A DNA stretch of 45,805 bases from Escherichia virus fEg-Eco19, in sequence record NC_073314.1. The stretch is one strand, 5' to 3'. This document shows, piece after piece, positions 98-44,757 of the stretch. A model generated the notes under the pieces. The model did not search any database, had not been told where the DNA came from, and saw nothing but the letters and a program-made list of their open reading frames with translations. The stretch's first letter is position 1. Every line of letters begins with the position of its first letter. The translations under genes and the position numbers were made by a program.

Positions 98-128
98 TCA
101 TTTACACAAACGAGAGGAGAGACAGAAG

Positions 129-3551: not shown

Positions 3552-3697
3552 AAATCACAGATACCGAAGCATTCAAAGATGCACAACTGATGGCACGCAT
3601 CGCCGTTAGCAACCTGAGCAACAGCATTCCGGCGGATGCGTTCTGGTTCGCTGCTATGCAGACACTGAAAGCAGCTTATGCAGGAGATAAGAAATGA
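3548..3697 (+). CDS. small hypothetical protein (49 aa)
   Basis: ATGA overlap with upstream stop; below the track size cutoff, translated by eye. Confidence 0.3.
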   Translation: MKITDTEAFKDAQLMARIAVSNLSNSIPADAFWFAAMQTLKAAYAGDKK

Positions 3698-3849
3698 GCG
3701 AACAAGGTCAAGTAAGCCAGCCATTACGAGTAGGCCGTAAAGTAAATCACACCCCATTCCCGACACGTGAGGAACTGATGAAACGAAACAGTTTCCCGGG
3801 GCCGGACAAGAACAAGTATCTCAATCGCATGTGGGGAGAGAAGAAATGA
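3694..3849 (+). CDS. small hypothetical protein (51 aa)
   Basis: ATGA overlap chain; translated by eye. Confidence 0.3.
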   Translation: MSEQGQVSQPLRVGRKVNHTPFPTREELMKRNSFPGPDKNKYLNRMWGEKK

Positions 3850-4034
3850 CCGACCGTGAATACGAAAAGATGATGGTAGAGGCCGCAAACGGCAAAACGC
3901 AGAATGCTAAAGCTGAAATAGGGATACTAGATAGGCGGATAGAAGAACAGGCCCGATACCTTGACCGCCTTATGGAGCGCCGCCGTGAACTGATTAACCG
4001 CTTCAACCTGAACAAAGGTGACGCCAATGCCTAA
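3846..4034 (+). CDS. small hypothetical protein, coiled coil
   Basis: Internal ATG of track ORF 3831..4034 (MTDREYEKMM...). Confidence 0.4.
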   Translation: MTDREYEKMMVEAANGKTQNAKAEIGILDRRIEEQARYLDRLMERRRELINRFNLNKGDANA

Positions 4035-4266
4035 AATCACAATCGCATTACTAGAGCGCCGTATTCTGGTGCTTGAGTCAGAGAAACAGACGTTAGGTGG
4101 GCAACTGTCGATTAACGGTGGATTTCAACTGGAGGCGTTTAAGTTGCTACTTGAGCGCATGAAAGCGGACGAAAAGCCTTGCGCGCACGACTACTACATG
4201 CATTTAGTTGATGGGGTACATCGAGTCACATGCTTAAAATGTGGTAAAGCGTATGAAAGCGCCTGA
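4027..4266 (+). CDS. small hypothetical protein with C-terminal zinc-ribbon-like motif
   Basis: Internal ATG of track ORF 4018..4266; CxH...CxxC at C-terminus. Confidence 0.4.
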   Translation: MPKITIALLERRILVLESEKQTLGGQLSINGGFQLEAFKLLLERMKADEKPCAHDYYMHLVDGVHRVTCLKCGKAYESA

Positions 4267-5205: not shown

Positions 5206-5751
5206 ATGAAGCTGAAACTTAAGCAGCCATCGCCAGAGGTGGTGCAAGCTGCACATGAAGAAGCTGTTAGCGCAAACCGTCGCCGTAAACGACCGCGCGG
5301 TAAACAGAGCCTTTATCAATCATCCCGTAATTCCGCCGCGTTGTGGGACCCGGACTATTGCGACGCGTTAATCGAGTTCTTCGACCGCACGTCATGGGAG
5401 CTTGTGCCTACGTCCAAGGGTGATGAACGCCCGCTGATTCAGGACAAACCGCCGTCACTGGCCCGCTTTGCCTTACGCATCGGCGTCACTATCCCGATTA
5501 TTAAGCTGTGGCTGCGCGAGATTCCCGCATTCGCAGAAGCATGGGAGACAGCGCAGGCATTGGAAGAGGCATACTTCACTGAGACAGGAGCCGCTGGCAT
5601 CTCTGCTACGTTTGCCGCAGCTAAGCTGGGCCTTAGCAAAGAGAAACCAGTTGAATCCACCGAAGAAACAGCACCGACTGAGATTATTTTCAGTGTAGCG
5701 GAGCCTGTAGGTAAAATCGTAACAACGAACATGGGCGAGGTAGAGGAATGA
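5206..5751 (+). CDS. terminase small subunit (by position)
   Basis: Internal ATG (MKLKLKQ...) with AAGGGG RBS; immediately upstream of and overlapping terminase large subunit; basic N-terminal region. Confidence 0.5.
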   Translation: MKLKLKQPSPEVVQAAHEEAVSANRRRKRPRGKQSLYQSSRNSAALWDPDYCDALIEFFDRTSWELVPTSKGDERPLIQDKPPSLARFALRIGVTIPIIKLWLREIPAFAEAWETAQALEEAYFTETGAAGISATFAAAKLGLSKEKPVESTEETAPTEIIFSVAEPVGKIVTTNMGEVEE

Positions 5752-10093: not shown

Positions 10094-10615
10094 TTATTTA
10101 AATCGCGCAGGCATTAACACCATAAAGGCCGTGTTTGAAAATAGTATTTTGCATCCTCTGGTTTGGTCCTGGAAATCGAAACGAGCAATTTCATTTTTGT
10201 ATGCCTTAGAAATCTTGTACGCGTCTGCCAAATAGCGCAGAGTGAACCCTATACTATCGACAACACCCGGTGTGATGTGCGCCACGCGTCTCCAGTCAGG
10301 AAAGTTTCCTTCTACAACATCTACCGGAAGTGTACATATAAGCGCACGATTATCGTCATAGAAAGATACACTGCCGTTGTCGTGGTCTACCTCTGCGTAG
10401 TTAAATTTAGAAGGCTCTCTCCCTTTGATGTTTATGAGAGTCCCTTTCTCAACGTTGGTCTTCACATTGTCGCAGAACAATCTATGACCGTCCGTAGACA
10501 CTATCAATCCTTCAGGGTCTATGTAAAAAGCGTTCAAATAGTGGCGAACATCATTTTTAGCCCTGCATATTTTCGCCCCTACATACGCAGGGAAAGTAAT
10601 TACTGTAGTAACCAT
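10094..10615 (-). CDS. hypothetical protein, opposite-strand accessory gene in head module
   Basis: 173-aa ORF with AGGAGA RBS; visibly AT-richer than flanking head genes; own promoter. Confidence 0.55.
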   Translation of the reverse strand: MVTTVITFPAYVGAKICRAKNDVRHYLNAFYIDPEGLIVSTDGHRLFCDNVKTNVEKGTLINIKGREPSKFNYAEVDHDNGSVSFYDDNRALICTLPVDVVEGNFPDWRRVAHITPGVVDSIGFTLRYLADAYKISKAYKNEIARFDFQDQTRGCKILFSNTAFMVLMPARFK

Positions 10616-10640
10616 TTCTCATCTCCTGTTTAAGTTAACT

Positions 10641-10669
10641 GAATAGTACCCTATTATATTGGGGTGTGC
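10641..10669 (-). promoter_or_regulatory. sigma70-like promoter (TTGCAC-N17-TACTAT class) with AATAG-N4-CTATT palindrome
   Basis: Reverse complement reads TTGCACaccccaatataatagggTACTAT; ~30 nt upstream of the ATG at 10615. Confidence 0.45.
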
Positions 10670-10723
10670 AAACTATTTGTTTACGTATTCCAGTTATTCC
10701 ACTCAATTGTAAATGTTGGAATA

Positions 10724-10990: not shown

Positions 10991-11350
10991 ATGAATCTTA
11001 AAGCAACTGTCGTAGCCGGAGCATGTTTCGTCGTCCTAGCCTACGCACACGGCATCTATCAATACCGCAGCGGCTGGGGTGAAGGCCGTGCTAATCTCGT
11101 TTCGCAGCAGCAGCAGAAAGCACAGGCCGCGCTGGTGAAGAAAACACAACGGCAGCAGCAGGATGAATCAAAGGCCGCCGCCGCTGACAACGAAGGCAAA
11201 ACGAAATCAGAGGTGATAACCCGTGAAGTCGTTAAGTACATAAGTCGACCCAATAAGGTATCTTGCAAGTTTGACGCTGATAGAGTTAGAATCAAATACG
11301 ACGCTGTCAACAACGCAAACGGGATACCAGGGTATGACGATATTAAATGA
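10991..11350 (+). CDS. putative i-spanin (Rz-like)
   Basis: N-terminal TM helix, then Q/K/A-rich helical region, conserved Cys near C-terminus; 119 aa. Confidence 0.4.
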   Translation: MNLKATVVAGACFVVLAYAHGIYQYRSGWGEGRANLVSQQQQKAQAALVKKTQRQQQDESKAAAADNEGKTKSEVITREVVKYISRPNKVSCKFDADRVRIKYDAVNNANGIPGYDDIK

Positions 11351-11840
11351 TACTTTCTACTACGATGATGGGGTTCTTTACTGGCGTAGCAGTAAGCTCG
11401 CCAATAAAACAGGAACCCCAGCAGGGTGCCTAACTACGCCGAAAGGCGCAAAACGGCGACAGACGATAGAGGTTAGATGGATGGGGAAGGCGTTTCAAGC
11501 GCACCGTCTTATATGGGAACTTTTCAATGGGCCAATTCCGACGCCATATGAGATAGACCACATTGACGGGAACCCACTCAACAATCGTATAGAAAATCTA
11601 AGGCTTGCTACTAGCCAAGAGAACAGTCGTAACGTTGGTCTCACGTCCGCTAATAGTACAGGGTTCAAAGGGGTTTCCAGGTTCCCAAACGGCAGATTCC
11701 GTGCGGACATAAGAATCCGCAACAAGACCAAATACCTCGGTCAGTTCGACTCCCCCGTCGACGCACACAAGGCCTACGTGCAAGCTGCCAAGAAGCTACA
11801 TGGAGATTTTTTCAAATGCGACTGCCAATATTGCTCTTAG
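11334..11840 (+). CDS. HNH homing endonuclease with AP2-like domain
   Basis: AHRLIWELFNG...EIDHIDGNPLNNRIENLRLATSQENSRN, then GFKGVSRF...AYVQAAKKLHGDF; paralogous to 31390..31875 and 33289..33786. Confidence 0.75.
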   Translation: MTILNDTFYYDDGVLYWRSSKLANKTGTPAGCLTTPKGAKRRQTIEVRWMGKAFQAHRLIWELFNGPIPTPYEIDHIDGNPLNNRIENLRLATSQENSRNVGLTSANSTGFKGVSRFPNGRFRADIRIRNKTKYLGQFDSPVDAHKAYVQAAKKLHGDFFKCDCQYCS

Positions 11841-17284: not shown

Positions 17285-18451
17285 ATGGCTACAACTCCTT
17301 TTAAGGGCGCGAATACAGCGCAATTCTATGTGGCGGAAGTGACCCCGGGCGTAACCCCAGACAGCCCTGTCTGGTCGCCGCTGCGCAATACGGGCGGTGT
17401 TCCTGCGGTAACCCGCGATGCGCTGACTTCCAACGAACTCGACGGCAGCAGAGAAACCACATCCATCCGCACCGGTAACAAACAGGTTAGCGGGGAGTAC
17501 GCCATCGAACTTAGCTCACGTAGCCAGGATGATTTCCTTGCGGGTGCTATGACTTCTACGTGGCAGGACGGGGTAGAGATTACGGGTGCTGAAATTACGG
17601 TCGCTCCAGCAGGTAAAACATTCACCCGCGCTGCCGGTAGCTTCATTACTGACGGTGTAGAGGTTGGCGACCTGATTGCATTCACCGACTTAACCGGCGA
17701 CAACGCAAAACCGTTTATCGTGACCGCGGTCGAGGCGCTCGTAGTAACAGGCGCAGGCATTCAGCACACGCTGACAGCAGAGACAAAAACCAGTAAGGCT
17801 AAGACCGGGGATAAACTGGAAACCGGTAACGCATGTAAGACGTTCTCTATCCTGACATGGTTCAAAGGACAGTGCGGGAACCCTGACGCGTGCATGTTGA
17901 CCAAAGGCGTGGAAATCTCCGGTTTTACTATCGAGCAGGCCGTGAACGCGATGGTGACAGGCAGCTTCCCGTTCATCGGTCTGAGTCAGGAAATTCTTAC
18001 CGCGCCGCCAGCAGGTTCCGACTTCTCCCAGGTTACGTTCACCGATGAGCCGTTCTCGTCTGTAGATGTGTCTGTGTTCGACGGCTCTACTCCGTTGCGT
18101 TGCGATACTCTTACCATCACCAACGACAACGGCGCATCCGCTCAGTTTGAACTAGGGAACAGTAGCGTTGCGTTCGTGGAACGCGGCCGCGCAGCTAACA
18201 CATTCTCCATCTCTGGTAAGCTGTACGACATGGCGATGATTCAGAAGTTTATCAACGAACAGCAGGTAGAGATTAACTCTATTCTGGCGGGGGTAAACGG
18301 GGCTATGTCTTTCAGCCTGAAACGTGCCGAGTTGACCGCAGTTACGCCAGAAATATCTGGCCCAGAATCAATCACCCAGAGCATAGAGGGACAGTCCACC
18401 GGCAATCAGTACCAGTCATCTATCGTAATTCAGCGTATTAGTTACACATAA
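17285..18451 (+). CDS. major tail protein (by position and size)
   Basis: 388-aa ORF upstream of G/GT chaperone and tape measure; followed by terminator. Confidence 0.5.
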   Translation: MATTPFKGANTAQFYVAEVTPGVTPDSPVWSPLRNTGGVPAVTRDALTSNELDGSRETTSIRTGNKQVSGEYAIELSSRSQDDFLAGAMTSTWQDGVEITGAEITVAPAGKTFTRAAGSFITDGVEVGDLIAFTDLTGDNAKPFIVTAVEALVVTGAGIQHTLTAETKTSKAKTGDKLETGNACKTFSILTWFKGQCGNPDACMLTKGVEISGFTIEQAVNAMVTGSFPFIGLSQEILTAPPAGSDFSQVTFTDEPFSSVDVSVFDGSTPLRCDTLTITNDNGASAQFELGNSSVAFVERGRAANTFSISGKLYDMAMIQKFINEQQVEINSILAGVNGAMSFSLKRAELTAVTPEISGPESITQSIEGQSTGNQYQSSIVIQRISYT

Positions 18452-18493
18452 CTTGTGGTATAAGAAGAGTAAAGGATAGCTTTAGCGGGCGAA

Positions 18494-18525
18494 AAAGAGA
18501 GGGGTCGTGCCCTCTCTTTCCTTTA
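18494..18525 (+). terminator. rho-independent terminator
   Basis: AAAGAGAGGGG-tcgt-GCCCTCTCTTT followed by T-rich tail. Confidence 0.5.
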
Positions 18526-18558
18526 TACGGTAAATACACGAGCCTGACGAGGTGAATA

Positions 18559-19191
18559 ATGTTCTTGTATGAAGAATTTGAAAAGATACCAGCATCAAAA
18601 CGGGCGGTATCATGCCGTAAAACAATCTGCGGAGTCGGTGTCAACGATGCAGATTTCACCACCAGTATTTTCAACGGCAAAAAGTCTGTTAACCACCCGG
18701 TGTACGATATTTGGTGTGCGATGATATTCAGGTGCTACCATGGGTCCGTTAAGCATCCAACATACTCAGGAGTGGTAGTGTGTGAAGACTGGCTGTATTT
18801 CTCCAACTACTTTAAATGGTACAAAGATAACTACGTAGAGGGTTGGCATGTTGACAAAGATTTGCTTACGGATTCTAAAGAATACTCACCGGATACCTGT
18901 ATATTTGTCCCAAGAGTTTTAAACAACTTTCTAACCGACAGCGCAGCGGCTAGAGGTGACCTACCGATAGGCCTTACTTATAGGAAAACAAACGGCAAGA
19001 TTCGATGCAGGGTTAATAATCCGCTAACCGGGGTGCGCGAAAACTTAGGCGATTTTACCGATTTGGATGAAGCCATCAAGGCCAGAACGCTGCGGAAGTT
19101 AGAGATAGCCGGAGAACTTAAGCCACTTATGGATTCCATAGACGGGAGAATCTATCCGAGGGCCGTTTCTGTAATTAAGGCACAACGATAA
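18559..19191 (+). CDS. HNH endonuclease (YGGRGI/EGW-DKD-YSP family)
   Basis: ICGVGVNDADF...IWCAMIFRCY...YVEGWHVDKD...YSPDTCIFVP; paralog of 24270..24920; AT-rich. Confidence 0.55.
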   Translation: MFLYEEFEKIPASKRAVSCRKTICGVGVNDADFTTSIFNGKKSVNHPVYDIWCAMIFRCYHGSVKHPTYSGVVVCEDWLYFSNYFKWYKDNYVEGWHVDKDLLTDSKEYSPDTCIFVPRVLNNFLTDSAAARGDLPIGLTYRKTNGKIRCRVNNPLTGVRENLGDFTDLDEAIKARTLRKLEIAGELKPLMDSIDGRIYPRAVSVIKAQR

Positions 19192-19196
19192 AACTA

Positions 19197-19220
19197 AGGC
19201 CCCTTTCGGGGCCTTTTTCT
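19197..19220. terminator. bidirectional hairpin terminator
   Basis: AGGCCCC-tttc-GGGGCCT with T-run; sits between convergent genes. Confidence 0.5.
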
Positions 19221-19450
19221 TACTCATCAATGTTACTCCGGTATTCCCGTAACTTCTCCAGGCTTTCAATTGCTTCCGCCAAGTCGGTTCCCGTGTCTTT
19301 GTGCCCGCGAAGGCCCATACACAATAGCTTCTTTAATGCGTGCTGTAGCGCCGGGTCGCGGATGTCGAAGGCGCGTAGCACATCATAAACGTCTACTGTC
19401 ATAGTGCTGCCGTGGGTGTTTGTCATTGTGCGGTTGTATTTATTTGTCAC
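19220..19450 (-). CDS. small hypothetical protein (DUF3310-like pattern)
   Basis: QHALKKLLCMGLRGHKD...DLAEAIESLEKL resembles a common small phage protein family; last gene of a 4-gene minus-strand operon. Confidence 0.4.
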   Translation of the reverse strand: MTNKYNRTMTNTHGSTMTVDVYDVLRAFDIRDPALQHALKKLLCMGLRGHKDTGTDLAEAIESLEKLREYRSNIDE

Positions 19451-19640
19451 TGTTAACTCTCTTAAATCTGGCTATGCCTGACTCGTTAATGTTGCCTATT
19501 TCAAAGAAGCTGCGATATTTAGGCGAATACATTCTTACGTCGCCGTTCTCTAGGGTGACCCCTTCATATACAGCGCCTACTTCGAATCCATTTTTCTCCG
19601 CGTACGGACTCACATCGGTGCATTCATACATATCTTTCAT
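19440..19640 (-). CDS. small hypothetical protein
   Basis: 66-aa ORF overlapping both neighbours. Confidence 0.4.
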   Translation of the reverse strand: MKDMYECTDVSPYAEKNGFEVGAVYEGVTLENGDVRMYSPKYRSFFEIGNINESGIARFKRVNSDK

Positions 19641-20767
19641 CCCAGCATCTCCGGTGAAATAGTTAAACGTGCGACCTCGCCATATTCGGCACTATAGGTA
19701 ATTACATTTGCACTACGGCCTGACATCCATCCACCGCGCGAGGCGTAGGCGTCTTTAGCCGCCAGGGTGCGGTGTTGCTCAACAATCATGTTACGGCTTT
19801 CCACAATCTTCTGATGGTGGAGGTGGCCTATGTGGGCGTAGCTGTAAACGCTTTCGCCAAATGCTTTGCGGAACTTGGCAATCATAACCGGTTCGATAGC
19901 GTCGAATCGTGCCTTATGCCCGTGGTGAAAGAACAGCGTCGTTTTGCCGTGTTGCACCATCTTGTAAACATCTGGCGACGTATCGACGAACACACGAGGC
20001 TCATTGTCGTACAGCGTACTAAACATCTCAGCTAACCAAATCATTCCGCTTTCGTCGTGGTTTCCTTGCACGATAAGCAAGCGAACATTTTTATGCTTAA
20101 CCAGCGCCATACCGACAACACGGCGGACCATACGAATCATGTAGCGGACAAGTTTCTGATAGCGAGTGTCCGCATCAAGAACGTGACCACTTGCGGGGGT
20201 AACCGCATCCAGACTATCGAAGTGCGCAAGGTCGCCCAGCAGGTTAATAACTCCTGTTCCCGCGTCCGGTGCTTTCTGGAATGCCGCGTCGAACCATCGA
20301 GAGAACAGGTCTTCTGCAATCTTCATGTCCCAGTCGTCGCCGCTCTCGTCGGCCCAGGCCAGCATACCGAGATGGAAATCAGATACAGTGTAAAGATTAA
20401 GTAGTTTATCGTCACGTTTGGCGCGAACGGCTTTAACAGGCGCAACCGGCGTAATCTCTGACTTCATGCCCTCGATTACAGCTTTCATCAACTCGACCTG
20501 ACGTTCTGCGTCAGTGTCGGTCTTAACCCATTGCAGCTTAGTGTTGCCGAACTCGTCCACAAGTGACGATGTGCCTTTAATCTTGTAGCCATCCGGCACA
20601 AGATGGCTAACGTCACGACCGTGACCTACGCCTTTCTTCGCCAGCTTCGCTTTACGGATACGAATAACTCGGTCTGAGATGCCGTATTTACGGGATATGT
20701 CGATAATCTTTGTTCCGGCGTTCAATTCTTCCTGTAACTGTTCGTCGGTTATTTTCTTCTGGGCCAT
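19637..20767 (-). CDS. HTH-domain protein fused to calcineurin-like metallophosphoesterase
   Basis: N-terminal IIDISRKYGISDRVIRIRKAKL (HTH-like); then phosphoesterase motifs DFHLG, GDLAHFD, GNHDE, HHGH, GHLHH; GAGGAAG RBS. Confidence 0.6.
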   Translation of the reverse strand: MAQKKITDEQLQEELNAGTKIIDISRKYGISDRVIRIRKAKLAKKGVGHGRDVSHLVPDGYKIKGTSSLVDEFGNTKLQWVKTDTDAERQVELMKAVIEGMKSEITPVAPVKAVRAKRDDKLLNLYTVSDFHLGMLAWADESGDDWDMKIAEDLFSRWFDAAFQKAPDAGTGVINLLGDLAHFDSLDAVTPASGHVLDADTRYQKLVRYMIRMVRRVVGMALVKHKNVRLLIVQGNHDESGMIWLAEMFSTLYDNEPRVFVDTSPDVYKMVQHGKTTLFFHHGHKARFDAIEPVMIAKFRKAFGESVYSYAHIGHLHHQKIVESRNMIVEQHRTLAAKDAYASRGGWMSGRSANVITYSAEYGEVARLTISPEMLG

Positions 20768-20805
20768 GCTTACTTCCTCGTGTTTAGGATTTGTCCTATA
20801 CTAGC

Positions 20806-20997
20806 TCACTTCTCGTTAACATTCGAGTTGCACGCCCAGATTAAAATAAATACCCACGGCAGCAGAACCCAACCGAGAAACAGGTTAGCCATGAATATCG
20901 CTAATTTAGCTTTATGGCTGCGCATATGCGCCACGAGAAATGGGATAAAATAAACTAAAACGATAATGATTAAGAAGAACATAGTAATACCTGTCAT
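20806..20997 (-). CDS. small membrane protein (2 TM)
   Basis: 63 aa, two hydrophobic helices; first gene downstream of promoter at ~21039-21067. Confidence 0.5.
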   Translation of the reverse strand: MTGITMFFLIIIVLVYFIPFLVAHMRSHKAKLAIFMANLFLGWVLLPWVFILIWACNSNVNEK

Positions 20998-21038
20998 GGG
21001 GTAGCTCCTGTTTGAGTTAACATTGTTGGTGTAAGTGA

Positions 21039-21067
21039 ATAGTACCCTATTATATTGGGGTGTGCAA
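21039..21067 (-). promoter_or_regulatory. sigma70-like promoter (TTGCAC-N17-TACTAT class) with AATAG-N4-CTATT palindrome
   Basis: Near-identical to the 10641-10669 element (shared run GAATAGTACCCTATTATATTGGGGTGTGCAA). Confidence 0.45.
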
Positions 21068-21175
21068 GTAATGTGTTAGAATTATTTTGCGCCTAGTGTC
21101 GCACACGAAAAGCGGGTGGTTCCCGTCTGGCGCATTTACCGTTAACCTGAAACCTCTTAACCAAAGGATTAAAGA

Positions 21176-21595
21176 ATGAAACTTTCTGATTTTTATTTCG
21201 AAGAGAAAGCACTGGTAGGCAAGAAGATGCCGATTCTGCTACCAAACGGCGAAGACTCTGGCGAGTGGCTTAATGTTGTAAGCCCGGATGCAGATGCTGC
21301 CGTTAAAGCGGGGCGTGCTTTCATTATCGCGTACCGTCGCGGGTTGGCGCGCTTTGAAGAACTGGAAAAAGCCGCCAAAGAATCCGGCGACTATACTGAG
21401 TACAACCTGTCGGTTAACGAACTAGCGGAAGACCTCAACCGTCAACTCGCGGCAGAAGTCGTAAACGGCTGGAGTTTTGACGATGAGCCTTTCTCTAAGG
21501 AAGCATTTAACAAATTGCTCGACCAGTTCAAAGGGCTTGGAACACAAGTAGCGGCGTTTCATAACGCTGAACGTAAAGCATTACAGGAAAAGTAG
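21176..21595 (+). CDS. tail assembly chaperone (G-like)
   Basis: 139-aa acidic protein immediately upstream of tape measure. Confidence 0.5.
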   Translation: MKLSDFYFEEKALVGKKMPILLPNGEDSGEWLNVVSPDADAAVKAGRAFIIAYRRGLARFEELEKAAKESGDYTEYNLSVNELAEDLNRQLAAEVVNGWSFDDEPFSKEAFNKLLDQFKGLGTQVAAFHNAERKALQEK

Positions 21596-21960
21596 ACGCG
21601 CTGTACAGGTTCGCCACCTATGAGTTCGTTGATAAGCATAAAATCAGAGAGTTTGATTCTATAGCTGACGGGCACGAACAGGCGCTTATCGCGATGGGTG
21701 TAATCGATAAGAAAAAACGTGCAGCGCGACGGGGCGGGCCAGAATGCCCGCCCCTTTTTATATCCACCTTTGAGACGTATTGCGACATTAAGTTTACGCG
21801 ACACGTGCGCGAGGACGCTGTAGTATTGTTTGCAAGAGAATCCGTTACGTGGCAAGACCTGAAAGCCTATCTCGATGTTACGCAAAAACAGCTTAGCCTG
21901 TTCGAGATAGACATTATCATGGGCTTAGAAGCAATCTTTGAAGGTAGAAATCATGGCTGA
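21577..21960 (+). CDS. -1 frame extension (T segment) of tail assembly chaperone
   Basis: The -1 frame is open from ~21577, overlapping the last 6 codons of G, and runs to 21960; candidate slip at G-GAA-AAG (~21586-21592). Confidence 0.4.
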   Translation, partial: SITGKVDALYRFATYEFVDKHKIREFDSIADGHEQALIAMGVIDKKKRAARRGGPECPPLFISTFETYCDIKFTRHVREDAVVLFARESVTWQDLKAYLDVTQKQLSLFEIDIIMGLEAIFEGRNHG

Positions 21961-24269: not shown

Positions 24270-24920
24270 CTAACGACCCTCTTTTATCAAGGCGATAACG
24301 CGGTCGAACATACCTTCCCTTATCGCCTCTATCTCACATCTTCTTGATTCCGCCGCCCTTATCTTTTCAACAATGTAAGCATCTAGCGCTTCTTCCTGAG
24401 TTTCAAAACGTCCTAGATTAATAGTTTTTTTATCACAGCTCACTGAGGCTTTAAATTTACCTCTAGATTCTTCATAAAAAACACCTGTAGGTGTTCCACT
24501 ATTTTTCTTCTCCTTTAGGAAAACATTCAACCATTTCGGGATGAAAATGCAAGTGGTAGGGCTGTATACCTTATTAATACCAGAGAATATGTCCTTATCT
24601 AGCTCCCATCCCTCCACATAATTACAAAGCCACCATCTACGGAAGGACATAAACCTTTGCCACCCATGCCACACAGTTACATCCCTGTACGCAGGCCTTT
24701 TGTTTTTATACTCGGCGTCCACGCAACGTTGGATCATCCCTCGCCATGTAGCGTACGCCAGACACGTCTCACGGCTGCCGTTTATCTTGGGGCTAACCAC
24801 ATAATCGGCGTCATTTATGCCAAAACCACATATAGTTGCGCGCTTAGTTTTGCTGCTTTTGTTCGCAGGATAATTCGCACGCAGCCACATGCTCTTGGCT
24901 ACTTTTTCGGTTGGCATCAT
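24270..24920 (-). CDS. HNH endonuclease (YGGRGI/EGW-DKD-YSP family)
   Basis: Internal ATG with AGGAGA RBS; ICGFGINDADY...YVEGWELDKD...YSPTTCIFIP; paralog of 18559..19191; AT-rich. Confidence 0.55.
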   Translation of the reverse strand: MMPTEKVAKSMWLRANYPANKSSKTKRATICGFGINDADYVVSPKINGSRETCLAYATWRGMIQRCVDAEYKNKRPAYRDVTVWHGWQRFMSFRRWWLCNYVEGWELDKDIFSGINKVYSPTTCIFIPKWLNVFLKEKKNSGTPTGVFYEESRGKFKASVSCDKKTINLGRFETQEEALDAYIVEKIRAAESRRCEIEAIREGMFDRVIALIKEGR

Positions 24921-24955
24921 GTTAGTATCTCCTAAACTAATAGGAGTATCTTGCC

Positions 24956-25456
24956 ATGTCTTCTTTGAAATTTCCAGCAAGTTTAAAGCCGGTGGTGTCG
25001 AAAGGCTACTCAATGACCAGACGTAACAACGTCTGGAGCGTCGATTTAGCTGGCGGAGGTGTACGTCAGGGACGCGACACGTATTACGACGTGTTCCCGA
25101 TAAGCGTAACCCTGATTACATCGGCGCTAGGGCGGCAGGCGTTTCTGTCGTTCCTTGAGAAAGTCGATGGCGGTGCGTCAAGTTTCTGGATGGCACATGA
25201 CTTCGGCATGGGTATCGAGGATTACCAGGTAACAATCACGTCAACCATCGCTGAGTCCACCGAAGACGGGATTAACTGGACAATTACTTTCACGGCAACC
25301 GCTGAGAAATCGCCGTTCCAGGATCTTGAGAACCAGTGCCTGATTAACAATCTGCCGGATTTGTACGGTTGCTATGGTGACGGGCTGGGGTGTTTCCTTA
25401 AAGCCTACGGAACTGCACAATCAACGTTTCCACGAATTTGGGACCCGATGCAATGA
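24956..25456 (+). CDS. minor tail protein (distal tail, M-like by position)
   Basis: First tail gene after tape measure; AGGAG RBS. Confidence 0.45.
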   Translation: MSSLKFPASLKPVVSKGYSMTRRNNVWSVDLAGGGVRQGRDTYYDVFPISVTLITSALGRQAFLSFLEKVDGGASSFWMAHDFGMGIEDYQVTITSTIAESTEDGINWTITFTATAEKSPFQDLENQCLINNLPDLYGCYGDGLGCFLKAYGTAQSTFPRIWDPMQ

Positions 25457-31389: not shown

Positions 31390-31875
31390 TCACGTCGTTT
31401 CTCCGTGGTTTTCATGAAATCCGTAAGCAGCCTCCGCGGCTTTACGCGCGGCAACAGCTTCGTCAAAATTATCAAACTGTCCTAGATGTATTTTTCTTCT
31501 GTCGACTTTTATCTCTGCCACCCATTTGTTTCTTCTCTTTTCCCGCCATACACCAAGAGCGCCGCTAGTATTGTTTACCCCTATTGATGCGTTGCGGCTA
31601 TTTTCGGTGTTGGTAACTTTCCGTAGGTTGCGTATTCGGTTATCAGTTCGTATATGATTAATGTGGTCTATCTGTTCCTGTGGCGTAAGTTGGTTATCTG
31701 GATTGCAGATATTCCATGCTAACCGGTGTGCTAGTTCTAGTTTTCCGTTTACTCGGATACGAATGTACCCATCCCGTGGACAAAAGCATCCCGCTTTCTT
31801 TCCAATAAAACCCCTACGTTTTGTTTCAGCCCATGTGAAAATACCGGTTTCAGGGTCGTATGATACCTTGCTCAT
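31390..31875 (-). CDS. HNH homing endonuclease with AP2-like domain
   Basis: AHRLAWNICNPDN...IDHINHIRTDNRIRNLRKVTNTENSRN, then GALGVWRE...AAYGFHENHG. Confidence 0.75.
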   Translation of the reverse strand: MSKVSYDPETGIFTWAETKRRGFIGKKAGCFCPRDGYIRIRVNGKLELAHRLAWNICNPDNQLTPQEQIDHINHIRTDNRIRNLRKVTNTENSRNASIGVNNTSGALGVWREKRRNKWVAEIKVDRRKIHLGQFDNFDEAVAARKAAEAAYGFHENHGETT

Positions 31876-33296
31876 TTCTTACTCCTACGTTTCATATACT
31901 CAAGGAGGATATCCTGCACCTGTTTTTTCTCGTCTGTGCGTGAAGTGACAACAGAATCCAACGTATCTTTAGCAATAATCTTGTAGATAAAAACAGGGCG
32001 ATTATACCCCGATTGCTTTTGCCGTACTGGCCCTATGCGCTCTACAACCTGTAAATAGTGTTCGAGGTTCCACCCCTGACTGAAAAATGCCATATGATGG
32101 CCGCCGTCTTGTAGCGATATGCCGTGCCCGGCTGACGCGGGGTGCACGCATAAGATTTCGATTTCACCGCGGTTCCACGCTTCCATCTGCTTATTGCCCT
32201 TCGCACCTTTGGCGAACGCCTGTGCCTGAGGGAATCGCTTAAGGATACGCTCAAGTTCGTGCTTAAACTGATAAGCTACCAGTAACGGTGCACCCTGTAG
32301 CTCCTCCACAATCGACTCTAGCGCATCCAGTTTCGTGTCGTGCACTTTCTCCCATTCTTTGGTTGCTTCACCGTCCGGCCCTGATACATACACAGCACCA
32401 GATGCAATCTGTAAACACTTCGACGTCTTTGCTGCCGCGTTAGCCGCTTCAACTTCTCCGCTCTCAAGTTCCGCGAATAACTTTTCCTCCATATCGATGT
32501 ACGCCTGGCGCGCCTTCTTCGGCAGGTCGATTTCAACAGGGACGATAACGGGCGCTTCGCAGCCAAACCACTCGGCAGCGTCAATCGTGAGACTGATGTC
32601 CTTCATCTTCTGGTGAATTTCATTATCCGCGCCAGGGCGCGCATGATACTCACGTGCCATAGCCGATTTGCCTTTCTGGACAGAGTTAAACCATCGGTCG
32701 GTGAATGCCGTGTATGAAGAACCGAGGCGCTCGCCAGCGTCGATAAACCAGTTCTGACCCCACAAGTCTTTGAGGCCGTTCGGTGACGGCGTTCCCGTCA
32801 GGTTGATGAAACGCTTAACCTTACCGAATGCCACTTTACTAAGCGCCTTTGCCCGCTTGCTGCCACCTGAACGGCTACGGAAAGATTTCAGTTTCGTGCT
32901 TTCATCGGCAACAATAACCGTAAAAGGCCAGTCGTCTTTGCCGTAATAGTCAATAAGCCACTCGATAACTTCGTAGTTTGTACAGACCACATTAGCGTCT
33001 GACTCCAGCGCCGCGATGCGGCGCTTCTCCGAACCAGTTGCATCTACGACGCGCAGACAAGGGAAGTTCCAACGTGCCTGTTCCGCGGGCCACGTACCGG
33101 ATGCAACACGTAAAGGAGCCAGAATTAATACCCGGTCGTAGTCCGTAAGTTGGCCGTTGCGGAACAGTCGGTTGAGAACCCACAACGTTGACCCCGACTT
33201 GCCGCTGCCCATCGAAGCCCAAATATTACAGCGAGGGTGCTGCAACATGAACGAAGTCATGAGCTTTTGGTACTCCCTGCGGGTAAATTTAGCCAT
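31872..33296 (-). CDS. SNF2-family (superfamily 2) helicase
   Basis: Walker A MGSGKSGS, motif II VIVADESTKLK, C-terminal QVVERIGPVRQ. Confidence 0.65.
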   Translation of the reverse strand: MAKFTRREYQKLMTSFMLQHPRCNIWASMGSGKSGSTLWVLNRLFRNGQLTDYDRVLILAPLRVASGTWPAEQARWNFPCLRVVDATGSEKRRIAALESDANVVCTNYEVIEWLIDYYGKDDWPFTVIVADESTKLKSFRSRSGGSKRAKALSKVAFGKVKRFINLTGTPSPNGLKDLWGQNWFIDAGERLGSSYTAFTDRWFNSVQKGKSAMAREYHARPGADNEIHQKMKDISLTIDAAEWFGCEAPVIVPVEIDLPKKARQAYIDMEEKLFAELESGEVEAANAAAKTSKCLQIASGAVYVSGPDGEATKEWEKVHDTKLDALESIVEELQGAPLLVAYQFKHELERILKRFPQAQAFAKGAKGNKQMEAWNRGEIEILCVHPASAGHGISLQDGGHHMAFFSQGWNLEHYLQVVERIGPVRQKQSGYNRPVFIYKIIAKDTLDSVVTSRTDEKKQVQDILLEYMKRRSKK

Positions 33297-33786
33297 TATT
33301 AACCCCGTGGTTGGTATGGAAACCGTATTCTATTTCTGCGGCTTTACGTACCGACAATGCCTCTTCGAACGTCTTAAATCTGCCTAGTTCCATAAGTATT
33401 GTTTTTACACGTATGCGCGCTCGCCAAATACCTTCTTTTATCAAAAATTCCACACCAGTTGCGCCGGTCTTATTACATGTGTACAAGCTCTTGTTCTGCA
33501 TGTTTTGTTGCGTTGTAACCTTACGTATGTTGTCCCCTCTGTTGTTAGTTTTGTCATGATCTATGTGGTCTATTTCATCGTCCGGCCCTAATAAATCATC
33601 AGGGTGTAACGTATCCCACGCTAAACGATGCGCCTGATACATCTTTCCGTCTATTTTTATCCTGACGTAGCCGTTACTTTTACTGCCGCCCGCTATGGAG
33701 CCAGCGGAACGACCTCGCGGGGCAACCACCCATGTGAAAATCCCGGTGTCTGGGTTATAGTCCAGTCTGCCGTCGAAGCATTTCAT
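33289..33786 (-). CDS. HNH homing endonuclease with AP2-like domain
   Basis: AHRLAWDTLHPDD...IDHIDHDKTNNRGDNIRKVTTQQN, then GATGVEF...AEIEYGFHTNHG. Confidence 0.75.
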   Translation of the reverse strand: MKCFDGRLDYNPDTGIFTWVVAPRGRSAGSIAGGSKSNGYVRIKIDGKMYQAHRLAWDTLHPDDLLGPDDEIDHIDHDKTNNRGDNIRKVTTQQNMQNKSLYTCNKTGATGVEFLIKEGIWRARIRVKTILMELGRFKTFEEALSVRKAAEIEYGFHTNHGVNNG

Positions 33787-34004: not shown

Positions 34005-34292
34005 TTAACTATAATAGTTCGCTATTAGGTCGTCAACCTGTTTAAACGAACCGACGACAAAAACATTAGCACCACGCTTACGCATCCGCTCGTGTTCCCG
34101 TAACTGGTGTGGGTCTGGCTTCGTGTTTTCGTCTTTCTTAACCTCGACAAACCAGACGATGCCGCCAGGGAGAATTACCAGCAGGTCGGGGGCGCCTACT
34201 CTATTTTCGTACGACAATTTGCGTACGAGGCCCCCCAGGGCCTCGAATCGCTCTTTTGCGTATTTCTGGATGCGCCCCTCAGGCGTACTCAT
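34005..34292 (-). CDS. VRR-NUC domain nuclease
   Basis: GAPDLLVILPGGIVWFVEVKK...HQLREHERMRKRGANVFVV matches the PD-(D/E)XK core of VRR-NUC proteins. Confidence 0.6.
   Translation of the reverse strand: MSTPEGRIQKYAKERFEALGGLVRKLSYENRVGAPDLLVILPGGIVWFVEVKKDENTKPDPHQLREHERMRKRGANVFVVGSFKQVDDLIANYYS
34008..34036 (-). promoter_or_regulatory. sigma70 promoter TTGACG-N17-TATAGT with AATAG-N4-CTATT palindrome in spacer
   Basis: Reverse complement reads TTGACGacctaatagcgaactatTATAGT. Confidence 0.45.
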
Positions 34293-34494: not shown

Positions 34495-37400
34495 TTACTT
34501 AGCATAGCGTTTCAACTCCGCACCTTCCGCTACAAGAGGGAAGCCTTCTGCCCACTCCGGCAACGCGCACATTAATTTCTCCAGTTCAGCCACCGTGTAC
34601 TCTGGGGTGTCCGGAGTTTCACACACCAGTTCATCGTGTACCGAAAGCACGATAGGATACCCACCACCCTCAACGTTAATCATCGCATATGCCAGTAAAT
34701 CACGGCACAGCGCCTGAACAATGTTTTCACAGGCTTTGCCGCCGTGTGTGTATAGAGTTGTCCATTGGCGGGTTAACTGGTTTTCACCCTGATACTTGAT
34801 TCGCACATTCGTGTTCATCCGTCCGTCTTCGTCTGTTTCCTTTGTCACGCTAACGCCGATTCCCGGATACGAGAGGATACGGCCCGACGGCAACTCCATA
34901 CACAACCACCAACCAGGAACCTTCCTGCCGGATGAATCAAATTCTACAGTACGCCATATGCGGATAGCCCTTTCCCCATTCCTGCGCAAGTGTGCCCCCG
35001 CCCAAAATTCACGACCGGGATTACGAACAGCAGCTAAAATTCCGTCTTTAAGGTCGCGCCAGAACGCTACTGTTTCCGGGTGTGACTCGCGCCACATACG
35101 CTTGATTGCGTCACATGTGCGCCACACTTTCTTATCAAGAATATACGATGGTCGGTCATCCTTTTCACCCGGATGCGGTGGTCGCTTGGCTTCCTGAATA
35201 CGCGCCCACTCATACCCACGCGCGGTAGCAGCCCAGATGTGGTCGGGGAAAGTCCCGTCCATTGTTTTTGCCATCTCAATAAGGTCAAGACCTAAGTTTT
35301 TAGCGAACGTAACGAATGCTCCGACGCCGCCTTCGTATCCGAGTCCAAGCTCGCAGTTATGCGCCACAAGAAAGCCAGAGTCGGAAGCGATAAGAAAACG
35401 GTTGCCGTCTTCCACATCAATCAGGTCGTACACTGGCTCGCAGTAGGTTAATTTCCCGTTCAAGCTCAGCAATGCGGGCAACGGCTGCATCATACTTTCG
35501 TTGAAGCTCAGGTATTCGCCGTCTGTTACGGCAGTTTTCAGAACGGCTGACAAACCGAATGTTTCCAGGTTCGTAGTTACCGTCTGTGTCGATTCTATCC
35601 ATTTCGAGGTTCGGGTCATCCCAGCCTTCCAGAGTTTGAACATATCTAAGAAAAGACCTTTTATCAGTCCTCCACTGGTCAAATACCGTGATGCCTCTTG
35701 CCCCATAGTTTTTATAACCCTTATCCCTGGGGCTTGTTGTCCGCGTGATTGCCGCGGACAGCCGGTTGAGTAATCGCGTTCTGTGCACATCATCCGGCAT
35801 TGCGTCTTCGTAGCAGAAATATTGTTTACGATATTTTTTTGTTGCTTCAAGGGCGCAACGGTTGCATTGAGTGGTTTTACCTGCTCTGACATTGTCATAA
35901 TAGACCCGCCCCGGCATCTCTCCGCAATCACATTGGACGAGTAGTTGTCTTTGGCCTTGTCGTTTTGGTAACTCGCGCAGGATAACCAGGCGTCCATACC
36001 TATCTCCAGGGCGCGGTCCATCATATATTTGTTTGAAACGAGTTGCTTTGCCTGCTTCCAGGAATGCGTCAAGATTTTGTGGTCTTCGGTCATTAGCACC
36101 CCGTCCACATTTATCACCGGTTTCCACCCCATAAGGTGCGCGCCTTTTGTATTCACCCATTTTTCGCCACTCCATACTTTATCTGTCGATGTGACCGCCA
36201 TAATATCCTTAAATCCGCCATAGGTCAAAACTTGGGTATGGCGGTGAAGGCAGGCTTTACCAATCTGGCGTAAGTCTTTGCGTTCTTTCTTAATGTAATC
36301 CGGCTCCATACCAAACATCTTACCCGCGGTTACGCAGTAAATATCCAACCCGGCGCGGAACGTATCGAGCGCGGTTTCTTCACCAGCCAGCCACGCAAGC
36401 CCTCGGCCTTCAACGTTAGAGTAATCGGCAACAACAAACTTATGTCCGGCTTCCGGTATGATGCAGCTACGAACGGTCGATGCCGTTAGCTTGGCCACAT
36501 CGAAACGGCGATGGGCGCGACCCTTAAGTAACGCCGAAATGCCTTTATCCAGCTCATCATCGTGATAGTAACCGCGTGCCAGGTTCTGCGGCTGGAAGCC
36601 TTTACCAGCCCATCGCAGAGTACGTTTTGCCCCACCGTACTGCAAGCAACCACGACGGCGGTCGTCGGACGAGCGGCCTAACAGCAATGGGTTATATTTC
36701 GTTGACGCGGTAGACGCGGCCCCGAGGCGCATTTCGATAATCGCGCGAGCGTCGTCTGGTAAATCATCATCCGAAAGCAGGTCATTAAGCGTCGACTTCT
36801 GCGCATTGTGGATGCGGTGCGCTGGGGCAAGCTCACGCAGAATCGGCAGAAAGTCCTTACCAGTAAGCGAGCCGCCGTATTTGCGTTGGGCTTCTTCCTG
36901 CAACCGTGCCTTGTGCTTCTCCACAGCTTCAATCGCGGCTTCTGCCAGGGCAACGTCAACCTTAAACCCGCGGTCGTTGATTAACTGGTCCAGTTCCAGT
37001 ACACGGTCTTCGAACTCGGAGTTACCCCACCGCGGCAGCTTATGGAAGACTTCACGCATTGCGGTGATGTCACTCACGGCGTATTTGATGAACAGTACCC
37101 ACTCGTCCGGGTGTGTTTCAGCGGTGTAGCGACGGATTTTGTAGTTCTTCGGCGTCGGTTTAGAGAAACGCTGAATCAGCGCCTTGCCTCGTTTGTCTTT
37201 CGCGTTGTCTGCTGACACGCCCAGCACTTCGCACAACGCATCGAGGGAACCCGGCAGCGCGTGACGAAACGCCCAAATCATCGTATCAATGGTGTTGCCT
37301 ACAGGAATATCAAAGTCCCAGCAGTGTTTCATGATGAGCCTATCGAACATTGAGCCGTTGTGCCATACCATCTTGATGCGACTGTTCGGCTTAACCAGAC

Positions 37401-37593
37401 GGCGTAGAGCGCGGTGTAAATCACCCGGCATGTCGCTGCCGTCGGTGCAATCCCATACCTGCACAGGCTCGTCGTCAAAGGCATAGGTACAGATGAGCAC
37501 TTCGGTTGACGGGTGTTCGGCGTAAGCGTAGGAGCCGACTTTCTTCAAATCGGCTTCGGAGAATGTTTCAAAGTCCAGGTATAAGTAGCTCAT
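34495..37593 (-). CDS. family A DNA polymerase with 3'-5' exonuclease domain, interrupted by an intein in motif B
   Basis: Exo motif LYLDFETFS, motif A VVADYSNVEGRGLAWLAGEE, motif B split as RQIGKA | intein | CELGLGYEGG; likely start is the internal ATG (MSYLYLDFET) with AAGGA RBS, track ORF starts at an upstream TTG. Confidence 0.85.
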   Translation of the reverse strand: MSYLYLDFETFSEADLKKVGSYAYAEHPSTEVLICTYAFDDEPVQVWDCTDGSDMPGDLHRALRRLVKPNSRIKMVWHNGSMFDRLIMKHCWDFDIPVGNTIDTMIWAFRHALPGSLDALCEVLGVSADNAKDKRGKALIQRFSKPTPKNYKIRRYTAETHPDEWVLFIKYAVSDITAMREVFHKLPRWGNSEFEDRVLELDQLINDRGFKVDVALAEAAIEAVEKHKARLQEEAQRKYGGSLTGKDFLPILRELAPAHRIHNAQKSTLNDLLSDDDLPDDARAIIEMRLGAASTASTKYNPLLLGRSSDDRRRGCLQYGGAKRTLRWAGKGFQPQNLARGYYHDDELDKGISALLKGRAHRRFDVAKLTASTVRSCIIPEAGHKFVVADYSNVEGRGLAWLAGEETALDTFRAGLDIYCVTAGKMFGMEPDYIKKERKDLRQIGKACLHRHTQVLTYGGFKDIMAVTSTDKVWSGEKWVNTKGAHLMGWKPVINVDGVLMTEDHKILTHSWKQAKQLVSNKYMMDRALEIGMDAWLSCASYQNDKAKDNYSSNVIAERCRGGSIMTMSEQVKPLNATVAPLKQQKNIVNNISATKTQCRMMCTERDYSTGCPRQSRGQQAPGIRVIKTMGQEASRYLTSGGLIKGLFLDMFKLWKAGMTRTSKWIESTQTVTTNLETFGLSAVLKTAVTDGEYLSFNESMMQPLPALLSLNGKLTYCEPVYDLIDVEDGNRFLIASDSGFLVAHNCELGLGYEGGVGAFVTFAKNLGLDLIEMAKTMDGTFPDHIWAATARGYEWARIQEAKRPPHPGEKDDRPSYILDKKVWRTCDAIKRMWRESHPETVAFWRDLKDGILAAVRNPGREFWAGAHLRRNGERAIRIWRTVEFDSSGRKVPGWWLCMELPSGRILSYPGIGVSVTKETDEDGRMNTNVRIKYQGENQLTRQWTTLYTHGGKACENIVQALCRDLLAYAMINVEGGGYPIVLSVHDELVCETPDTPEYTVAELEKLMCALPEWAEGFPLVAEGAELKRYAK
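35356..36252 (-). mobile_element. intein (299 codons) in DNA polymerase motif B
   Basis: Hint blocks in polymerase frame: N-terminal CLHRHT, block B LMTEDHKILT, blocks F/G VYDLIDVEDGNRFLIASDSGFLVAHN followed by Cys. Confidence 0.7.
35417..36175 (-). CDS. HNH endonuclease ORF inside the intein, in a different frame from the polymerase
   Basis: 252-codon ORF offset from polymerase frame (37647-36175=1472, not a multiple of 3); GYKNYGARGITVFDQW...EGW...DRIDTDGNYEPGNIRFVSRSENCRNRRR; shares EGW...DKD...YSP motif with 18559..19191 and 24270..24920. Confidence 0.55.
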   Translation of the reverse strand: MEWRKMGEYKRRAPYGVETGDKCGRGANDRRPQNLDAFLEAGKATRFKQIYDGPRPGDRYGRLVILRELPKRQGQRQLLVQCDCGEMPGRVYYDNVRAGKTTQCNRCALEATKKYRKQYFCYEDAMPDDVHRTRLLNRLSAAITRTTSPRDKGYKNYGARGITVFDQWRTDKRSFLRYVQTLEGWDDPNLEMDRIDTDGNYEPGNIRFVSRSENCRNRRRIPELQRKYDAAVARIAELEREINLLRASVRPD

Positions 37594-37745
37594 TTCTTTT
37601 TCCTTAAATCCAGTGCCTTCGTTTCGCTTAATCTTATTTTCATACAATCACGACAAATCCACACATGTCTGTACCCGGCGCGGTACTCATCCGCGTACCA
37701 CGGAAGTGGCTTCATGTATCGGTATACGTGCTTGCAGAAAAACAT
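37590..37745 (-). CDS. small Cys-rich protein (51 aa), coupled to polymerase start
   Basis: Translated by eye (MFFCKHVYRYMKPLPWYADEYRAGYRHVWICRDCMKIRL...); stop overlaps polymerase ATG as ATGA. Confidence 0.25.
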   Translation of the reverse strand: MFFCKHVYRYMKPLPWYADEYRAGYRHVWICRDCMKIRLSETKALDLRKKK

Positions 37746-44723: not shown

Positions 44724-44757
44724 TCACTTATCGAAACGAGACAGATGAGTGAGGGTT

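Follow-up and report, generated by a model that had tools for sequence, protein, structure and literature searches.

The 45,805-nucleotide sequence of Escherichia virus fEg-Eco19 (NC_073314.1), which as a whole is called the window below, carries a block of four open reading frames (ORFs) between its tail tube gene and its tail assembly chaperone gene, on the strand opposite to these structural genes, and this four-ORF unit is the subject of the present analysis. In the order of its predicted transcription, the unit encodes a 63-amino-acid (aa) two-transmembrane protein of the Imm_superinfect family (Imm), a 376-aa protein in which a helix-turn-helix (HTH) region precedes a calcineurin-like metallophosphoesterase (MPE), and two overlapping small proteins of 66 and 76 aa (p66 and p76). 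An earlier reading of the DNA letters and their ORFs, called here the sequence-only reading, had regarded the block as a horizontally acquired accessory cassette. The four minus-strand ORFs lie exactly where that reading had located them (Table 1), and its outline of an opposite-strand transcription unit with its own predicted promoter and terminator agrees with the promoter element at 21039-21067 and with the hairpin at the distal end of the unit. What the unit is, where it stands, how far it is conserved and where it is bounded are well supported by our analysis. What the MPE acts on and which role it plays, as discussed further below, would have to be read from the rank of its fold matches, from its domain make-up and from its gene neighbourhood.

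Table 1. Coordinates of the reverse-strand unit, its signals, the flanking genes and the repeated palindrome in the window
Feature	Position	Strand	Details
Imm, 63-aa two-transmembrane Imm_superinfect protein	20806-20997	-	AGGAG ribosome-binding site 8 nt upstream
MPE, 376-aa HTH-metallophosphoesterase	19637-20767	-	phrog_704
p66, 66-aa ORFan	19440-19640	-	
p76, 76-aa conserved small protein	19220-19450	-	phrog_2452; KY.R..G..VDVYDVL.AF..PA.QHALKKLLC.GLRGHKD
Predicted promoter/operator of the unit	21036-21067	-	-35 TTGCAC 21062-21067, 17-nt spacer, -10 TACTAT 21039-21044
Predicted bidirectional intrinsic terminator	19196-19215	both	AAGGCCCC-TTTC-GGGGCCTT
Palindrome sites AATAG-N4-CTATT	85-98, 10642-10655, 21038-21051, 34013-34026, 38499-38512, 40962-40975, 41383-41396, 44711-44724		
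Tail tube gene	17285-18451		PF18906 E=4e-37
HNH homing-endonuclease gene	18559-19191	+	phrog_953 E=1e-68; GC 0.444
Tail assembly chaperone gene	21176-21595		frameshift extension 21694-21960

A DNA-level search with the region 18400-21200 found matches in 323 phage records. The top match is Escherichia phage vB_EcoS_fFiEco03 (Guernseyvirinae, Kagunavirus) with 95.6% identity over the full length of that region, and judged by its sequence the window is an E. coli siphophage of the genus Kagunavirus (Guernseyvirinae), about 95% identical to published genomes. Its layout is typical of the group, with head and tail genes on the plus strand and, on the minus strand, a replication module which includes a helicase-primase, a PD-(D/E)XK exonuclease, a gp2.5-like single-stranded DNA-binding protein (SSB), a family A polymerase and a helicase. 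Flanked by the tube and chaperone genes and running against them, the unit occurs in the Kagunavirus genomes fFiEco03, Golestan, XY1, Bas74 and fBC-Eco01 and in the Jerseyvirus genomes F118P13 and SGPC, and the gene order of fFiEco03 is identical to that of the window. The published Kagunavirus and Jerseyvirus units, annotated as FE3_020-023 in fFiEco03, gp24c-28c in fBC-Eco01, gp19-22 in Golestan, Bas74_0021-0023 and gp11-14 in F118P13, share with the window their genes, order, strand, position, promoter and terminator, with 91-96% DNA identity to the closest records. The unit is therefore already known, as an annotated and conserved operon of phages which are candidates for therapy and have been well sampled as a group. 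The sequence-only reading had not recognised the combination as a described system, but the same order, with a 'superinfection immunity protein' next to the MPE under its various labels, is annotated in many Guernseyvirinae records of GenBank and is discussed, predicted promoter included, in the fBC-Eco01 paper of 2023 (PMC9825357). Compared with the published units, the window has an extra HNH gene before the terminator, as do about 10 relatives, and has p66, as do 24 records; it lacks the HAD phosphatase and the deoxynucleoside monophosphate (dNMP) kinase of Golestan and XY1 as well as the Rha/ANT gene of F118P13.

The Imm-MPE unit is conserved by lineage, not universal, and appears fixed in two genera. 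It is present in 6/6 inspected Kagunavirus/Jerseyvirus genomes, while among approximately 493 phage records whose tail tube protein is at least 60% identical to that of the window, the Cornellvirus-type slot is seen in only about 30. In Cornellvirus FSL SP-031 the slot holds a 120-aa signal-peptide protein alone, and a search of its whole genome gave no homologue of Imm, MPE, p66 or p76; this 120-aa marker of the MPE-free slot was found in about 30 Salmonella phage records. A conserved repair- or replication-type factor in syntenic position in all relatives, which the sequence-only reading had named as the finding that would speak against its view, is thus largely but not fully what the genomes contain. 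The slot also varies in content among the genomes that carry the unit. In Golestan and XY1 a PNKP-type HAD phosphatase and a dNMP kinase take the place of p66 and p76, and F118P13 adds a Rha/ANT protein; an HNH gene is a further variant among the last genes of the slot. The MPE of F118P13 is 56% identical to that of the window and stands beside a 92%-identical p76, which points to mosaic alleles, and the full-length MPE of XY1 is only 60% identical to the window's. Directly after this full-length MPE, at 3671-4234 of XY1 (L010), lies a 187-aa ORF labelled as a 'calcineurin-like phosphoesterase', in which an HNH fragment is joined to the C-terminal third of another phrog_704 allele and which looks like the scar of an allele replacement.

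The predicted promoter of the unit, TTGCAC-17-TACTAT, agrees with the sigma-70 consensus at 7/12 positions and was missed by a generic promoter scan. We nevertheless take this predicted element as real and non-random, because it is repeated in the window and its hexamers are conserved in Jerseyvirus. The promoter 32-mer recurs identically at 10640-10671 (-) and in near copies at 69-100 (+) and 44695-44726 (+), which makes four copies in total, and Jerseyvirus keeps the hexamers and the palindrome arms while the spacer has diverged. That the sites at 69-97 and 44695-44723 might be one locus, duplicated by wrap-around of the window, was considered and rejected, since the two copies differ and the window shows no terminal redundancy. 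Overlapping the -10 of the unit lies the palindrome AATAG-N4-CTATT. The window has eight copies of it, where 0.01 would be expected, each of them in an intergenic region and at a promoter. Four of these eight lie over the -10 of TTGCAC-17-TACTAT promoters, and four lie in the spacer of near-consensus TTGACA-17-TATAGT promoters in the replication module, one of them upstream of the SSB gene, one past the downstream end of the polymerase gene and two close to the helicase-primase gene. With such a distribution, the palindrome looks like a phage-wide operator for a putative regulator. The same motif was given in the fBC-Eco01 paper as a 'phage promoter' predicted by PHIRE, with seven copies, and the fBC-Eco01 GenBank record annotates a promoter just upstream of the Imm gene (PMC9825357). 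Separately, the window contains a perfect 142-bp direct repeat (40889-41030 and 41310-41451, 421 bp apart) which copies a TTGACA-type promoter, a palindrome, a ribosome-binding site and an ORF start.

Since the promoter/operator of the unit is one of these phage-wide copies, with four of the eight palindromes in the replication module, the unit is not a foreign one running from a private promoter, as the sequence-only reading had supposed. The identical promoter copy at 10640-10671 (-) heads a second reverse-strand island in the head/lysis region, where a 173-aa gene lies downstream of it at 10094-10615 (-); by PHROG the product is a RusA-like resolvase or a polymerase-processivity factor (clamp-like), and in Pfam it has no match. 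The four-ORF unit belongs to a set of predicted transcription units which share one promoter/operator, several of them with DNA-metabolism genes; their timing and their regulator are presumed. In a coarse time course of a Kagunavirus infection, the Imm gene is classed together with the methylase and polymerase genes (PMC12645636).

At its distal end, the unit is closed by a predicted bidirectional intrinsic terminator, whose hairpin was recovered by scanning and by folding on both strands (folding energy -19.8 and -15.7 kcal/mol; z-scores -5.1 and -4.6). It would end the transcript of the unit on the minus strand and that of the HNH and tail tube genes on the plus strand, and the GenBank record of fBC-Eco01 marks a bidirectional terminator at the corresponding place, between tail tube gene and unit. 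The sequence-only reading had the unit bracketed by such terminators. The distal one stands, with z near -5 on both strands, whereas the one proposed on the promoter side, at 21085-21150, was rejected, with z=-0.6 against shuffled sequences and only a 4-bp stem before the T-run. Next to this place, at 21068-21100, an extended -10-like sequence on the plus strand, TGTTAGAAT, is arranged back-to-back with the promoter of the unit; it was noticed by eye, the generic scan being silent, and might allow transcription to resume past the terminator, into the chaperone and tape-measure genes. Regarding base composition, the block is not AT-rich as a whole, as had been claimed. Its GC content is 0.484 against 0.502 for the window, which is the 21st percentile of same-size windows and not deviant, and by parts it amounts to 0.509 for the MPE gene, 0.502 for p76, 0.396 for Imm, 0.423 for p66 and 0.433 for the intergenic region, so that only the last three are AT-rich. 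The last three genes are packed tightly: the p66 start and the MPE stop overlap by 4 nt (ATGA), and p76, which has a GTG start, overlaps p66 by 11 nt. In our reading these short overlaps are of the kind found with translational coupling.

The largest protein of the unit belongs to a big but divergent family. The MPE is a full-length member of phrog_704 ('DNA repair exonuclease'), with E=2.2e-164 for residues 3-375 against positions 1-389 of the 390 in the profile. Homologues of this family occur in 2,049 phage records, among them T1-like Drexlerviridae, Klebsiella, Dhillonvirus (76% identity), Vibrio, Rhodobacter and Campylobacter phages. Clustered at 50% identity, the homologues form 4,567 clusters, 1,129 of which have E<=1e-30. 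All five metal-binding motifs of the calcineurin-like superfamily (DxH, GD, GNH(D/E), H and GHxH) are present as DFHLG, GDLAHFD, GNHDE, HHGH and GHLHH, and in 117 homologues with 31-49% identity the residues D130, H132, G178, D179, N236, H237, H282, G314 and H317 are invariant, while H315 is kept in at least 90% of them. The AlphaFold2 model, with a predicted local distance difference test score (pLDDT) of 92.9 and a predicted template modelling score (pTM) of 0.84, has a three-helix HTH at residues 8-44, a beta-hairpin and a helix at 61-102, and at 119-376 a binuclear-metal phosphoesterase core with the beta-sandwich fold of the superfamily. The HTH itself gives a weak GerE/LuxR-type profile match (E=0.019). 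The description of an HTH fused to a calcineurin-like MPE is in this way borne out by motifs, invariant catalytic residues and model, and the 376-aa protein is a divergent member of the superfamily, visible by motifs and fold only.

In regard to its closest relatives by structure, the predicted fold of the MPE is nearest to the nucleases PolD-DP1, Mre11 and SbcD, on which Foldseek concurs. Ranked below them are LpxH (13.7), MJ0936 (13.4), Rv0805 (12.1), the Pseudomonas putida nuclease MPE (9.2) and PP5 (8.9). Sequence identity is only 12-18%, and the MPE family is therefore a distinct clade without a solved member. Searches against PDB with the single sequence and with a profile of the 117 sequences returned weak HTH matches, with SbcD and Mre11 below threshold (E=0.2-0.7), and neither PADLOC (E up to 0.01, five proteins) nor NCBIfam matched the proteins of the cassette. 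The remote-homology and structure checks that the sequence-only reading had proposed have given a nuclease-like fold and the phrog_704 assignment, but no specific sequence-level family in PDB, Pfam or NCBIfam, and its suggestion that the enzyme could act on nucleic acid is supported as a plausible one.

Several characterized enzymes invite comparison. Membership in the Mre11/SbcD family was rejected, on account of the missing partner ATPase, the sub-threshold PDB profile values and the lack of anything specific in Pfam and NCBIfam. Besides the low identity, the MPE differs from Mre11, SbcD and T4 gp47 in that the large ORFs of the window include no partner gene of the Rad50/SbcC/gp46 type, in its own N-terminal HTH and beta-hairpin, and in showing no sign of the C-terminal capping domain; the homologues of Tls, BrunoManser, F357, L016 and L018 likewise have no Rad50/SbcC-type gene beside them. 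Nor does the MPE qualify as a PolD DP1, since a DP2 subunit is missing and the polymerase of the phage, a family A enzyme (PF00476), has a 3'-5' exonuclease domain of its own; the likeness to the archaeal PolD DP1, a 3'-5' proofreading exonuclease, at 12% identity, is one of structural analogy and not of orthology. Stand-alone enzymes of the MPE fold that act as DNA nucleases without a Rad50-type partner do exist, as the Pseudomonas putida nuclease MPE (PDB 6NVO) demonstrates. The best functional precedent, and the only experimental one that we found, is Gp48 (A10ZJ24) of a cluster A mycobacteriophage, likewise a phage-encoded MPE with the five motifs, which is expressed early, has phosphodiesterase activity, disrupts the integrity of host genomic DNA and by this silences defence genes (PMC12287305). 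The first catalytic residue of Gp48 is D10, which by our reasoning would leave no room for an N-terminal HTH, unlike in the MPE of the window. The two are related at the superfamily level only, and Mycobacterium is missing among the organism names listed in the homology search.

Gene context in other lineages points to DNA metabolism every time. In the T1-like phages Tls and BrunoManser, the homologue ends an operon of helicase, Holliday junction resolvase and Dam genes, just before the lysis genes, and in Dhillonvirus it stands between the lysin and terminase genes. The homologue of Campylobacter Fletchervirus, from which the HTH is absent, comes right after DNA ligase and junction resolvase genes. 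On a metagenomic contig the homologue adjoins a PIF1 helicase, a 5'-3' exonuclease and a MazG-like gene, and on a lambdoid contig it follows a primase and a RecA-dependent nuclease, just before the antiterminator Q.

The first gene of the unit can be assigned at the sequence level. The 63-aa protein matches PF14373 with E=3.1e-13 and 49.8 bits against a gathering cut-off of 27.9, as well as phrog_1039 'immunity to superinfection' with E=1.4e-22, and its hydropathy profile has two hydrophobic helices (approximately 4-24 and 32-56) separated by a basic loop, in agreement with the two-helix membrane protein foreseen by the sequence-only reading. Family score and two transmembrane helices together place it in Imm_superinfect, which makes it a candidate superinfection-exclusion protein. 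T4 Imm (PF14373) is likewise a small two-transmembrane protein, and the window protein scores above the Pfam cut-off of that family; however, the window phage is a siphophage unrelated to T4, and the exclusion role of its protein is a predicted one. The lead position of the slot is taken by an envelope-targeted protein, either Imm or a signal-peptide protein, in every version examined, with an unrelated secreted protein at the Imm position in SGPC (109 aa, 2109-2438) and in Cornellvirus FSL SP-031 (120 aa, 32897-33259). In fFiEco03 a 109-aa 'superinfection immunity protein' (5407-5736) is annotated, which reaches back across the sequence that aligns to the window promoter; this is more likely an over-extension, and the 63-aa version with its AGGAG site is probably the correct one.

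The two small proteins at the end of the unit differ in their spread. Homologues of p66 were found only in 24 Kagunavirus records, none of them less than 92% identical, and in 5 near-identical metagenomic clusters; no match was found in Pfam, PHROG, PADLOC or NCBIfam, and in Bas74, SGPC and Golestan, which are without it, the next gene abuts the MPE gene. By this distribution p66 is a clade-restricted ORFan. In contrast to this narrow range, p76 has homologues in 772 phage records, where it is found alone, in early regions of T1-like phages, or as a C- or N-terminal domain of longer proteins. Its AlphaFold2 model (pLDDT 87) consists of a beta-hairpin and three helices and has no fold match in PDB (best E=1.3); a PDB profile search gave only a chance-level match to CENP-H, and Pfam searches with p76 and three multi-domain relatives at E up to 10 gave nothing credible. 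A suspected likeness to DUF3310 was dropped, as hhalign against the DUF3310 protein of L016 aligns the equivalent motif with a probability of 0.3% and E=0.23. The labels 'ATPase' and 'terminase' on p76 homologues (phrog_17613, BEK1-1, PHS3) look spurious, there being neither a Walker motif nor a family match. Both small proteins appear dispensable to the existence of the unit, because Golestan and XY1 carry the HAD phosphatase and the dNMP kinase instead.

Combining these lines of evidence, we propose with moderate confidence that the unit is a conserved reverse-oriented Imm-MPE transcription unit of Jerseyvirus and Kagunavirus, not newly acquired, that it is co-regulated with DNA metabolism, and that its MPE is a DNA phosphodiesterase. 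On this proposal the unit would be expressed with the DNA-metabolism regulon under a common regulator, and not with the surrounding tail genes. Imm would be a two-helix inner-membrane protein of the T4-Imm family, which most likely blocks DNA entry by secondary phages. The MPE would be a binuclear-metal DNA phosphodiesterase, that is a nuclease, of the Mre11/SbcD/PolD-DP1 structural class which works without a Rad50/SbcC partner, with its N-terminal HTH holding the DNA. Most likely it would degrade DNA of the host or other non-self DNA and process DNA ends, which would feed nucleotides to phage replication and blunt host responses. As a close second, the enzyme may process the recombination or replication intermediates of the phage itself.

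Several points weigh against this proposal. The Pfam models for MPE stay below their curated cut-offs (PF12850 with 21 bits against 27, PF00149 with 18.9 against 21.5). Among the large ORFs and PHROG assignments of the window there is no ATPase partner of the Rad50/SbcC type. The HAD phosphatase and dNMP kinase neighbours in some relatives would fit a nucleotide-level substrate equally well. Cornellvirus lacks the MPE and yet keeps a similar replication module, and the function of the MPE is therefore dispensable or replaceable. Promoter use, timing and a palindrome-binding regulator are all things that we infer, and the sole Kagunavirus time course is a coarse one (PMC12645636). Finally, we found no published biochemical or genetic data for any phrog_704 member, and the literature on Guernseyvirinae or Drexlerviridae together with phosphoesterase, judged by titles and abstracts, consisted of genome-announcement-type papers, with no functional study found in it.

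The main rival to a DNA phosphodiesterase is a small-molecule phosphodiesterase, acting on nucleotides, on cyclic or oligonucleotide signals such as those of CBASS, Pycsar, Thoeris and type III CRISPR, or on pools of deoxynucleoside triphosphates (dNTP) and dNMP, in which case the protein would be an anti-defence or nucleotide-metabolism enzyme and not a nuclease. The phosphatase and kinase neighbours just mentioned speak for it, as does the modest margin of the fold ranking. Yet a conserved N-terminal HTH is hard to account for in such an enzyme, the three best structural matches are DNA nucleases, in four other lineages the MPE gene stands beside genes for DNA helicase, ligase, resolvase and exonuclease, and PADLOC gave no match. 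We therefore hold this possibility to be unlikely, though it deserves to be kept in mind.

Slightly less probable still, in our judgement, is the view taken by the sequence-only reading, in which the unit is an acquired moron-like cassette whose Imm blocks entry and whose MPE destroys competitor DNA. Part of that view is sound, because the slot is indeed a cargo slot of variable content, MPE-free in about 30 Cornellvirus-type genomes such as FSL SP-031; its first gene always encodes an envelope protein, Imm or a signal-peptide protein; its MPE alleles are mosaic, as in F118P13 and in the second-allele remnant of XY1; and the 76% identity of the Dhillonvirus MPE suggests exchange between groups. 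What does not fit is that the MPE and p76 genes have a genome-average GC content and that the unit appears fixed in two genera. The unit has a terminator of its own, but it runs from the phage's eight-copy promoter/operator, and not from signals unrelated to those of the phage. Homologues in other lineages sit in replication operons and not in moron positions, and such a nuclease would need some way to tell self from non-self.

Two further alternatives carry little weight. The fold of MPE enzymes is also used by 2',3'-cyclic phosphodiesterases, for example C. thermocellum Pnkp and lambda phosphatase, and the MPE might be an end-healing enzyme (a 2',3'-cyclic phosphodiesterase or a 3'-phosphatase) like the MPE domain of Pnkp, repairing RNA or DNA ends damaged by host nucleases together with the kinase and phosphatase genes of some relatives. 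This would suit the PNKP-type HAD phosphatase (PF25109, E=9e-21) and the P-loop kinase which follow the MPE in Golestan and XY1, but that kinase is of the dNMP-kinase family (phrog_139) and not a polynucleotide kinase, the cassette has no ligase, and the window has p66 and p76 instead of the kinase and phosphatase genes; we regard the idea as improbable. A protein phosphatase like lambda NinI (lambda-PP), acting on host or phage phosphoproteins, is very improbable, the point in its favour being the homologue just upstream of the antiterminator Q on the lambdoid contig, a position which we take to be that of lambda NinI.

Apart from the unit itself, the window is rich in mobile genes. The HNH gene at 18559-19191, which the sequence-only reading had omitted, separates the tail tube gene from the terminator of the unit, is covered by only about 10/323 of the DNA-level relatives, and has a paralogue at 24270-25013 (-); it is an adjacent mobile insertion outside the operon. 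In all, at least five free-standing HNH genes are found in the 45.8-kb window, at 11271-11840 (+), 18559-19191 (+), 24270-25013 (-), 31390-31875 (-) and 33289-33786 (-), two of them assigned to phrog_953 and three to phrog_99. In addition, the family A DNA polymerase ORF (34495-37647, -) is 1,050 aa long, and its residues from about 483 to 855 match an 'endonuclease' family (phrog_93), while the Pfam polymerase domain ends at residue 465; the segment could represent either an intein or a homing endonuclease inserted in frame. An Rfam scan of the whole window gave no match.

With regard to the meaning of these results, the MPE family is among the larger phage protein families still without an experimental function, and its GenBank labels are inconsistent, ranging over metallophosphoesterase, 'DNA polymerase II small subunit', 'DNA repair exonuclease', 'proof-reading exonuclease' and 'recombination endonuclease subunit'. 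The polymerase-subunit and the Mre11-type labels rest on structural analogy and do not hold up in the membership tests described above. For phage therapy, it is useful to know of an Imm-type exclusion gene and of a nuclease that possibly acts on host DNA, neither of them being a safety flag. The palindrome shared by the unit, the second reverse-strand island and the replication module offers a simple account of how genes of DNA metabolism would be co-regulated although they are dispersed within the structural region. We suggest tentatively that the HTH-MPE proteins of phrog_704 form a distinct, partner-independent class of phage DNA nucleases, which serve in the breakdown of the host chromosome or in counter-defence, the Guernseyvirinae copy acting via the AATAG-N4-CTATT operator. 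Such a class could span T1-like phages, Dhillonvirus, Guernseyvirinae and many marine siphophages, and we presume that it might match the unmapped host-DNA-degradation function of classical T1 genetics.

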